The notes under the pieces were generated by a model that worked only from the letters and a program-made list of their open reading frames with translations, made no database searches and had not been told where the DNA came from. From NCBI RefSeq assembly GCF_003334315.1, contig NZ_QOWR01000020.1: a stretch of DNA of 64,000 bases; one strand, written 5' to 3'. Of the stretch, positions 4,707 through 13,439 are shown one piece after another (position 1 is the stretch's first letter; the number at the start of each line of letters is the position of its first letter). The stretch comes from Escherichia coli (lineage in GTDB: Bacteria > Pseudomonadota > Gammaproteobacteria > Enterobacterales > Enterobacteriaceae). Both the position numbers and the translations under genes were made by a program.

Positions 4707-5543
4707 ATGACCGTATTACATAGTGTGGATTTTTTTCCGTCTGGTAACGCGTCCGTGGCGATAGAACCCCGGCTCCCGCAGGCGGATTTTCCTGAACATC
4801 ATCATGATTTTCATGAAATTGTGATTGTCGAACATGGCACGGGTATTCATGTGTTTAATGGGCAGCCCTATACCATCACCGGTGGCACGGTCTGTTTCGT
4901 ACGCGATCATGATCGGCATCTGTATGAACATACCGATAATCTGTGTCTGACCAATGTGCTGTATCGCTCGCCGGATCGATTTCAGTTTCTCGCCGGGCTG
5001 AATCAGTTGCTGCCACAAGAGCTGGATGGGCAGTATCCGTCTCACTGGCGCGTTAACCACAGCGTATTGCAGCAGGTGCGACAGCTGGTTGCACAGATGG
5101 AACAGCAGGAAGGGGAAAATGATTTACCCTCGACCGCCAGTCGCGAGATCTTGTTTATGCAATTACTGCTCTTGCTGCGTAAAAGCAGTTTGCAGGAGAA
5201 CCTGGAAAACAGCGCATCACGTCTCAACTTGCTTCTGGCCTGGCTGGAGGACCATTTTGCCGATGAGGTGAATTGGGATGCCGTGGCGGAGCAATTTTCT
5301 CTTTCGCTGCGTACGCTACATCGGCAGCTTAAGCAGCAAACGGGACTGACGCCTCAGCGTTACCTGAACCGCCTGCGACTGATGAAAGCCCGACATCTAC
5401 TACGCCACAGCGAGGCCAGCGTTACTGATATCGCCTATCGCTGTGGATTCAGCGACAGTAACCACTTTTCGACGCTTTTTCGCCGAGAGTTTAACTGGTC
5501 ACCGCGTGATATTCGTCAGGGACGGGATGGTTTTCTGCAATAA
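4707..5543 (+). CDS. rhaS: AraC-family activator of rhaBAD and rhaT
   Basis: 278 aa [46 protein letters not shown]... Confidence 0.95.
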
Positions 5544-10475: not shown

Positions 10476-10562
10476 GTGTAGGCCTGATAAGACGCTATCA
10501 GCGTCGCATCAGGCATCCTGCTCAAATGCCGGATGCGGCGTAAACGCCTTATCCTGCCTACA
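10476..10562. repeat. REP pair (BIME) between yiiM and cpxA
   Basis: GTAGGCCTGATAAGACGC...GCGTCGCATCAGGC and GCCGGATGCGGCGTAAACGCCTTATCC units. Confidence 0.8.
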
Positions 10563-11946: not shown

Positions 11947-12641
11947 GAAGCAGAAACCATCAGATAGCCGCGACCACGCAAGGTTTTAAACCACGGGTGA
12001 CCATCTTTACGATCCGGCAGTTTACGACGCAGGTTGGAAATGTGCATATCGATAGCGCGGTCGAAAGGCGTCAGGCGTTTGCCCAGCACTTCCTGGCTTA
12101 AATGTTCACGGGAAACCACCTGACCCAGATGCTGTGCCAGCAAATAGAGCAGGGTAAACTCAGTGCCGGTTAACTCCAGCGTTTGCCCGTCGAAGCTGGC
12201 TTCCTGACGGCCTGGATTCAGCACTAAGGCATCAACTTCCAGTGTCGGTGAACCGTTGTCGTTGTTTTGCTGTTGCTCGCTCCAGTGCGAACGGCGCAGG
12301 ATCGCGCGAATACGTGCCACCAGCTCACGATCATTAAATGGTTTCGGGAGATAGTCATCTGCGCCCAGCTCAAGGCCGAGAACGCGATCAAGTTCACTGC
12401 CGCGCGCCGTCAACATAATGACAGGCGTCTGGTGTGTCTGGCGAAGTGCTTTTAATGTGTCGATACCATTTTTCTTCGGCATCATTACGTCAAGCAAAAG
12501 TAAATCAATGCTGTCGTCCAGAAGATCAAGCGCCTGTTCCCCATCGTGGGCAACAATCACGTTGAAGCCTTCCATCTCGAGCAGCTCCTTTAATAGGGAA
12601 GTCAGCTCTCGGTCATCATCAACTAACAGGATTTTATTCAT
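11943..12641 (-). CDS. cpxR: envelope stress response regulator
   Basis: 232 aa MNKILLVDDDRELTSLLKELLEMEGFNVIVAHDGEQAL...; 4-bp overlap with cpxA. Confidence 0.97.
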   Translation of the reverse strand: MNKILLVDDDRELTSLLKELLEMEGFNVIVAHDGEQALDLLDDSIDLLLLDVMMPKKNGIDTLKALRQTHQTPVIMLTARGSELDRVLGLELGADDYLPKPFNDRELVARIRAILRRSHWSEQQQNNDNGSPTLEVDALVLNPGRQEASFDGQTLELTGTEFTLLYLLAQHLGQVVSREHLSQEVLGKRLTPFDRAIDMHISNLRRKLPDRKDGHPWFKTLRGRGYLMVSAS

Positions 12642-12696
12642 TGTTTAAATACCTCCGAGGCAGAAATTACGTCATCAGACGTCGCTAATCCATGAC

Positions 12697-12711
12697 TTTA
12701 CGTTGTTTTAC
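12697..12711. promoter_or_regulatory. CpxR box in cpxR-cpxP divergent promoter region
   Basis: Reverse complement reads GTAAAACAACGTAAA, matching the GTAAA-N5-GTAAA consensus. Confidence 0.6.
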
Positions 12712-12790
12712 ACCCCCTGACGCATGTTTGCAGCCTGAATCGTAAACTCTCTATCGTTGAATCGCGACAGAAAGATTTTGGGAGCAAATG

Positions 12791-13291
12791 ATGCGCATAG
12801 TTACCGCTGCCGTCATGGCCTCAACGCTGGCAGTCAGTTCATTAAGCCACGCTGCTGAAGTCGGTTCAGGCGATAACTGGCATCCGGGTGAAGAACTTAC
12901 GCAGCGCAGTACGCAGAGCCATATGTTCGACGGCATAAGTTTAACCGAACATCAGCGTCAGCAGATGCGAGATCTTATGCAACAGGCCCGGCACGAACAG
13001 CCTCCTGTTAATGTTAGCGAACTGGAGACAATGCATCGCCTTGTCACCGCAGAAAATTTTGATGAAAACGCTGTGCGCGCACAGGCAGAAAAAATGGCGA
13101 ATGAGCAAATTGCTCGTCAGGTTGAGATGGCAAAAGTCCGCAACCAAATGTATCGCCTGTTAACGCCGGAGCAGCAAGCGGTTTTAAACGAGAAACATCA
13201 ACAACGAATGGAGCAGTTGCGCGACGTGACGCAATGGCAAAAAAGTTCATCGTTGAAGCTATTGAGTAGTAGCAACTCACGTTCCCAGTAG
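12791..13291 (+). CDS. cpxP: periplasmic Cpx pathway inhibitor/adaptor
   Basis: 166 aa from [40 protein letters not shown]... Confidence 0.95.
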
Positions 13292-13298
13292 TAAACCC

Positions 13299-13358
13299 TG
13301 TTTTCCTTGCCATAGACACCATCCCTGTCTTCCCCCACATGATGTGGGGGTTTTTTTT
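13299..13358 (+). ncRNA. cpxQ: CpxQ, 3'UTR-derived small RNA of cpxP (approximate 5' boundary)
   Basis: Known sRNA processed from the cpxP 3'UTR; here the 3'UTR ends in a strong terminator CCCCCACATGATGTGGGGG TTTTTTTT. Confidence 0.5.
13332..13358 (+). terminator. rho-independent terminator of cpxP/CpxQ
   Basis: CCCCCACATGATGTGGGGG stem followed by eight T. Confidence 0.85.
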
Positions 13359-13439
13359 ATCCTCAATTTGCCTGCTGCTTAATGCATTGCAGATGATTTG
13401 CTTCCGTTATACTAGCGTCAGTTGATAGCGGGAGTATTT

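Follow-up and report, generated by a model that had tools for sequence, protein, structure and literature searches.

The 3' untranslated region of cpxP in the Escherichia coli DNA analysed here (a stretch of 64,000 nucleotides, hereafter the window) almost certainly encodes CpxQ, a 58-nt Hfq-dependent small RNA derived from the cpxP mRNA, at positions 13301-13358 on the plus strand, a reading to which we assign a probability of about 97%. CpxQ has been known since 2016 and is a textbook case of a regulator released from the 3' end of an mRNA; the RNA identified here is thus already known, and its identification is an ordinary one without discovery value. The curated record of E. coli K-12 MG1655 annotates an ncRNA cpxQ (b4716, 'small regulatory RNA CpxQ') of 58 nt at 4106330-4106387, and alignment of b4716 with 13301-13358 yields 57/58 identities, bearing out the proposal of a first-pass annotation of this DNA that the published CpxQ sequence would match the cpxP 3' untranslated region. 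The sole mismatch, at 13342 (A here, C in K-12), is the middle base of the terminator loop, and no effect of the change on the terminator stem is expected. Apart from this loop base, the K-12 RNA and its counterpart in the window agree in locus, strand and length and share the seed, both stems and the U8 tail, with cpxP and a CpxR-type box upstream in each case.

The register of the RNA in the window, UUUUCCUUGCCAUAG, places U at nt 1, U at nt 7 and C at nt 11. Bianco et al. describe CpxQ as a 58-nt RNA with its seed at the 5' end and used a C11G substitution together with a compensatory change at G135 of cfa (PMC6755755), while Schilder and Goerke report a U at the 5' end of the RNA and pairing of U7 with nhaB (PMC10250213). 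The window register fits CpxQ because U1, U7, C11 and the length of 58 nt all agree with this published numbering. The mature 5' end at 13301 was set from the K-12 annotation of b4716 and is consistent with the same numbering; the interval of 13299-13358 proposed in the first-pass annotation is right at its 3' end and begins 2 nt upstream of the mature RNA, a boundary that this annotation had not claimed to read from the sequence. The CpxQ site is found in 5426/5426 complete E. coli genomes. The 67-nt cpxP untranslated region is identical to that of the window in 4190 E. coli records and differs at one position in 1235, and the K-12-type records sampled belong to the latter group.

The window spans the E. 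coli cpxA-cpxR / cpxP-fieF-pfkA region. The cpxP coding sequence (12791-13291, plus strand), taken from the open reading frame list and aligning in its coordinates with MG1655 b4484, encodes a 166-aa protein of the LTXXQ family and constitutes the parental mRNA of CpxQ; cpxR and cpxA lie divergently upstream, and fieF starts downstream, approximately 80 nt beyond the CpxQ terminator. A query of 801 nt over cpxP finds a match of at least 95% identity in 5426/5426 complete E. coli genomes, with identity of at least 99% in nearly all E. coli records; the records matched carry cpxR, cpxP and fieF annotations, and cpxP is so named in all listed genomes. Two antisense open reading frames (13044-13340 and 13198-13338) were set aside as mechanical reading frames opposite cpxP. 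The cpxR-cpxP spacer that precedes cpxP contains an exact match to GTAAA-N5-GTAAA, the established consensus of a CpxR site, at 12697-12711 on the minus strand; no second match occurs in the 64-kb window, where chance would give 0.04, and the box is likely, as judged from the motif, to be the site by which CpxR-P drives the cpxP-CpxQ transcript. At its other end, the cpxP reading frame closes with a TAG stop codon (13289-13291), the next codon in frame being TAA (13292-13294), and these tandem stops (TAG-TAA, 13289-13294) stand just 5' of the inferred CpxQ processing site.

Between the cpxP stop codon and the 5' end of CpxQ given by the K-12 annotation lies a spacer of 9 nt, UAAACCCUG (13292-13300, plus strand), and the mature 5' end annotated in K-12 would place the processing site between G13300 and U13301. 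The position at -2 of this inferred cleavage site is U, where the RNase E consensus carries a purine, which counts against this reading. RNase E cleavage has been reported, for Salmonella and E. coli K-12, as the route by which CpxQ is released (PMC9438474, PMC6755755, PMC10250213), with a requirement for Hfq (PMC9438474, PMC6755755), and the RNA has been described as very stable and as carrying a natural 5' monophosphate (PMC10250213). A different origin, in which CpxQ would be a primary transcript started at a promoter within the last part of cpxP, deserves mention because some small RNAs of 3' untranslated regions do arise in this way, and a weak or non-sigma-70 promoter is compatible with the sequence. 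A plus-strand scan of 12400-14000 nevertheless found no sigma-70-like promoter within cpxP and no promoter-like site anywhere 5' of 13301, which fits processing rather than separate transcription, and the native 5' U is an unfavourable base for initiating transcription (PMC10250213). Together with the reported RNase E dependence and 5' monophosphate, this makes transcription from an internal promoter a highly improbable account of an RNA that we read as a cleavage product of the cpxP mRNA. We found no sequence evidence against the CpxQ reading.

In its predicted fold, the 58-nt RNA leaves the first 13 bases unpaired and then forms two hairpins, a small one (AGACA/UGUCU) and that of the terminator, which is followed by a U8 tail. 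The free energy of the fold is -17.4 kcal/mol (z = -2.7 relative to shuffled sequences, 2/200 of which are as stable). The single-stranded 5' part, unpaired in the predicted fold, is the target-pairing seed, UUUUCCUUGCCAU (13301-13313, plus strand); the internal hairpin, with a 7-nt loop, occupies 13314-13330 on the same strand. The intrinsic terminator (13332-13358, plus strand), supported by the terminator scan, the fold and covariation, comprises a G+C-rich stem of 8 bp, 6 of them G-C pairs, a 3-nt loop and a U8 tail; the hairpin, CCCCCACATGATGTGGGGG, extends over 13332-13350 as CCCCCACA-TGA-TGTGGGGG, and is followed by T8 at 13351-13358. The strong terminator that the first-pass annotation had placed at the end of the cpxP 3' untranslated region is thus present as hairpin and T8. 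The generic terminator scan is not significant by itself (3 found versus 1.6 expected in 1.6 kb). Among 15 distinct sequences of the terminator stem, both-sided changes occur in 3/8 pairs and 93.8% of cells are paired; the covariation score was reached by 0/500 shuffles, and in slid controls pairing fell to 37-52%. The stem variants, CCCCCACA/TGTGGGGG, CCCCCTCA/TGAGGGGG and CCCCGCC/GGCGGGG, are related through compensatory substitution. The terminator hairpin is not a chance match, because it is conserved with compensatory changes. The pairs of the internal hairpin are almost invariant in the 15 distinct sequences, making covariation uninformative either way for this element. The terminator (13332-13358) is presumed to be the 3' module bound by Hfq, the binding itself being known from the literature.

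CpxQ function is documented in E. coli and Salmonella (PMC4817254, PMC9438474, PMC6755755, PMC10250213). The RNA lowers expression of Skp, NhaB and cfa and protects the inner membrane (PMC9438474, PMC4817254, PMC6755755), and base pairing has been demonstrated through C11G and a compensatory change in cfa (PMC6755755). Duplex prediction between the CpxQ seed and the K-12 cfa leader gives a best duplex of -25.7 kcal/mol, equalled by 1/300 shuffled seeds, and in this predicted duplex C11 stands opposite G-135, which is the published compensatory pair. Only cfa stood out in this way, unrestricted duplex prediction for nhaB and skp being no better than with shuffled seeds, and the nhaB and skp pairings therefore rest on published work. 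A scan restricted to the seed recovers the nhaB coding-region site at +307..+314. The best nhaB duplex in the seed-restricted scan (-15.3 kcal/mol) lies at approximately -15 from the start codon of K-12 nhaB (L129); the Salmonella site at the nhaB translation start has been said not to be conserved in E. coli (PMC10250213).

These elements can be arranged into a proposed sequence of events. Envelope stress would activate CpxA/CpxR, and CpxR-P would drive the cpxP promoter through the GTAAA-N5-GTAAA box, the role of which is inferred. The cpxP transcript would end at the intrinsic terminator (13332-13358), and RNase E, to which the literature assigns the cleavage, would cut just past the stop codon, between G13300 and U13301. 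The resulting 5'-monophosphate RNA would, following the literature, be bound and stabilised by Hfq, and its seed would pair with the nhaB, skp and cfa mRNAs, lowering their expression and reducing inner membrane damage. One transcript would in this manner supply both CpxP, a protein of the periplasm, and an RNA regulator that acts in the cytoplasm. SdhX, SroC and NarS, which are likewise RNase E-cut mRNA 3' ends, resemble CpxQ in that the terminator of the coding transcript serves as the Hfq-binding end and in that the seed lies just past the stop codon (PMC9438474), and differ from it in their parent genes, seeds and regulons, no relationship in sequence being expected.

The conservation of the region across cpxP loci was analysed on an unbiased locus set, assembled by searching CpxP against protein cluster representatives and retrieving the contigs of nine homologues (36-62% identity). 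These are true cpxP loci, since cpxR and cpxA lie divergently upstream in 9/9; seven of them were compared quantitatively. In four (L130-L133, with CpxP 46-58% identical as measured), CpxQ nt 1-31, that is, the 31 nt 5' of the terminator hairpin, are 94-100% identical to the window, whereas identity is 60-65% for the cpxP coding DNA, 56-63% for the last 90 nt of the coding sequence and approximately 50% for the 60 nt of spacer past the terminator. In these four protein-anchored loci, the CpxQ 3' untranslated region is thus more conserved than the cpxP coding region. The pattern corresponds to the signature reported for CpxQ (PMC9438474). CpxQ similarity falls to 79%, 62% and 68% in L134, L135 and L137, respectively, the three most divergent of the seven loci. 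Across cpxP loci, the block CCUUGCCAUAGA persists as far as approximately 38% measured CpxP identity, and is absent from L137 (CpxP 36%) and L136 (36%, the least identical in the protein search). The putative cleavage context, with CCCUG before and UUUU after the cut, is conserved in most orthologous loci.

This distribution of conserved and diverged sequence bears on the simplest account of the stretch, according to which it would be merely the cpxP terminator and an untranslated tail, without function in trans. Genes of this kind need a terminator, and the hairpin and T8, taken alone, are explained in this way; a mere tail would drift, however, and the 31 nt preceding the hairpin in L130-L133 have not done so between flanks that have diverged. 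That account is also contradicted by published genetics, in which deleting and overexpressing the CpxQ segment in E. coli alters how much Skp is present and how well the cells resist stress (PMC4817254), and in which C11G, combined with a compensatory change in cfa, shows base pairing (PMC6755755). We therefore give it very little credence next to the CpxQ reading.

Other routes to distant loci were less informative. The DNA pattern CTGTTTNCCTTGCCA, searched against a 298-Gb contig collection, has too few specified bases and returned mostly chance matches; the pattern-derived set holds at least 8 true cpxP-CpxQ loci, from Enterobacteriaceae, and is biased towards an intact seed. Two of the pattern matches, L100 (Serratia oryzae) and L043, were rejected as chance hits rather than cpxP-CpxQ loci. 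A homologue listing at 88% CpxP identity or above was of no use for distant loci.

The first-pass annotation had also claimed that annotation based on open reading frames misses this feature, and the sampled E. coli records annotated by the RefSeq pipeline indeed carry no feature under the 67-nt untranslated region. Rfam has no CpxQ family, and none of its families reaches its gathering score at the site. Under permissive settings, RF02628 (Hrs1) matches 13286-13358 on the minus strand; the score of 44.5 bits (E = 1.2e-07) stays below the gathering score of 56.4. Hrs1 takes its definition from Erwinia amylovora, in which an Hfq-dependent RNA, seen on a Northern blot, is encoded on the cpxP strand in the interval from cpxP to fieF (PMC4070566), and it was deemed Erwinia-restricted in the defining paper (PMC4070566). 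It resembles CpxQ in its Hfq dependence, its cpxP-fieF position and its strand, and the Rfam model departs from CpxQ in matching the opposite strand and in being tuned to Erwinia-like sequences. In two Erwinia-like loci of the protein-anchored set, the model reaches 83.4 bits (L132:2029-2101) and 64.6 bits (L133:2005-2078), in both on the strand opposite to cpxP.

Taken at face value, these matches would place a functional RNA on the minus strand, with the hit in the window at 44.5 bits and related loci scoring above the gathering threshold opposite to cpxP. Read in that direction, however, the element opens with A8 and has no U tail past the hairpin, hence no terminator; the Hrs1 paper itself puts the RNA on the strand of cpxP and fieF ('> > >', PMC4070566), and the K-12 annotation and all functional work refer to the plus strand. 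A minus-strand RNA is accordingly a most unlikely reading of the locus. The RF02628 consensus opens with A7 followed by a hairpin, which corresponds to the terminator read backwards, and the model appears to be both reverse-complemented and too narrow. Because reverse-complementing the Hrs1 consensus gives a CpxQ-like sequence, Hrs1 is, on the comparison of sequences, CpxQ under an earlier name, and the alignments of cpxP loci contradict an Erwinia-only range. E. coli falls below the RF02628 threshold because of model orientation and a narrow seed rather than for biological reasons, and we infer that the same flaw probably explains the absent cpxQ annotation in the sampled RefSeq pipeline records of E. 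coli. Correction of RF02628 should let automatic annotation recover CpxQ across the Enterobacterales.

Several other Rfam families match above their gathering scores within the window. naRNA4 (CssrE) and ES036 (CssrF), which are elements of the repetitive extragenic palindrome type, match at 10481-10558 (minus strand), 15563-15604 (minus strand) and 34994-35035 (plus strand), at places that include the regions following cpxA and pfkA. A ClpQY (hslVU) promoter element (29293-29350, minus strand) and an L31 ribosomal protein leader (33962-34014, plus strand) were also detected, and both are expected for this region of the chromosome.

The 3' part of CpxQ coincides with a phage attachment sequence. 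A stretch of 47 bp (13315-13361), composed of CpxQ nt 15-58 (the 3' 44 nt) and a further ATC, is identical at 47/47 positions to the attP core of Wphi, and is likewise 100% identical in L-413C, fiAA91-ss and further P2-like phages, with 62 phage records in all. In Wphi the core lies between ogr and int, with TGTGGAC-type arm repeats at its flanks. The phage cores carry A at the position equivalent to 13342, as does the window, unlike the C of K-12. The window holds one copy of the 47-bp core, and since this copy is single the attachment site is empty. With a 201-nt query centred on the site, the sequence is continuous in 4591/5426 complete E. coli genomes and split in 835/5426 (15.4%); the two split sites inspected contain P2-like prophages, with all 58 nt of CpxQ intact at attL. 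Hybrid attL and attR junctions are seen in prophage records and in two chromosomes, and the prophage records show the order cpxR-cpxP-complete CpxQ-int at attL and D-ogr-core-fieF side at attR. Integration places int, on the opposite strand, in place of the sequence past the U tail, and leaves at attR, upstream of fieF, another copy of the hairpin and terminator of CpxQ that lacks the seed.

Use of the site by phages offers a further account of the high conservation, which could be imposed by attachment rather than by RNA function, given that 47 bp match a Wphi-type attP core and that 15% of E. coli genomes carry a split site. Phages choose conserved targets, however, and attachment brings the host no benefit; moreover, the most conserved and functionally proven part of the RNA, the seed at 13301-13314, falls outside the phage core, and the conservation holds in distant cpxP loci whose terminator departs from that core. 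Selection on attachment thus stands as a scarcely credible source of the conservation that we attribute to CpxQ function.

Two candidate extensions of the phage relationship were considered and not retained. One of them, in which the terminator copy carried by the phage would serve ogr and lysogens would produce a chimeric small RNA, is weakened by the presence of a terminator-like hairpin belonging to Wphi ogr itself (L003:2400-2419). Phage-like sequence, TTTTTTTTATCAnTCAnTT, was observed after the CpxQ terminator in Pseudescherichia vulneris (L103:3891-5477) and in Enterobacter sp. Bisph1 (L047); in the former, a stretch of 1.5 kb is bounded by a degenerate terminator repeat (5453-5477, 88%). 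A full prophage at the Pseudescherichia site was rejected, as no Wphi-like integrase was found there and the four open reading frames between CpxQ and fieF have no NCBIfam match, and from its sequence the stretch is probably a remnant.

The cpxP-fieF interval has been described, as an intergenic region, as the insertion site of Wphi1 in E. coli W (PMC3032704) and as the location of a prophage in a strain of O157 (PMC7609406), and P2-type elements at rybB, cyaR and cpxP-fieF are listed side by side in the E. coli W genome (PMC3032704). No paper connecting the cpxP-fieF phage site with CpxQ was found in the literature searched. At the P2-like sites in rybB, cyaR, ssrA and tRNA genes, as at this one, the phage carries the 3' part of an RNA gene, and the gene is rebuilt at attL because of this copy; the cpxP-fieF site differs from them in being described as intergenic in the papers found. 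With the 3' 44 nt of CpxQ serving as a Wphi-type target, we put forward, as a tentative and on balance unlikely proposal, that lysogeny could alter the termination or stability of CpxQ, the expression of fieF or the occupancy of Hfq. If true, this would tie an envelope-stress regulator to prophage carriage. Whatever the effect of lysogeny, the well-known 'intergenic cpxP-fieF' integration site in fact lies inside the CpxQ gene, and CpxQ thereby joins the small RNA genes targeted by P2-like phages.
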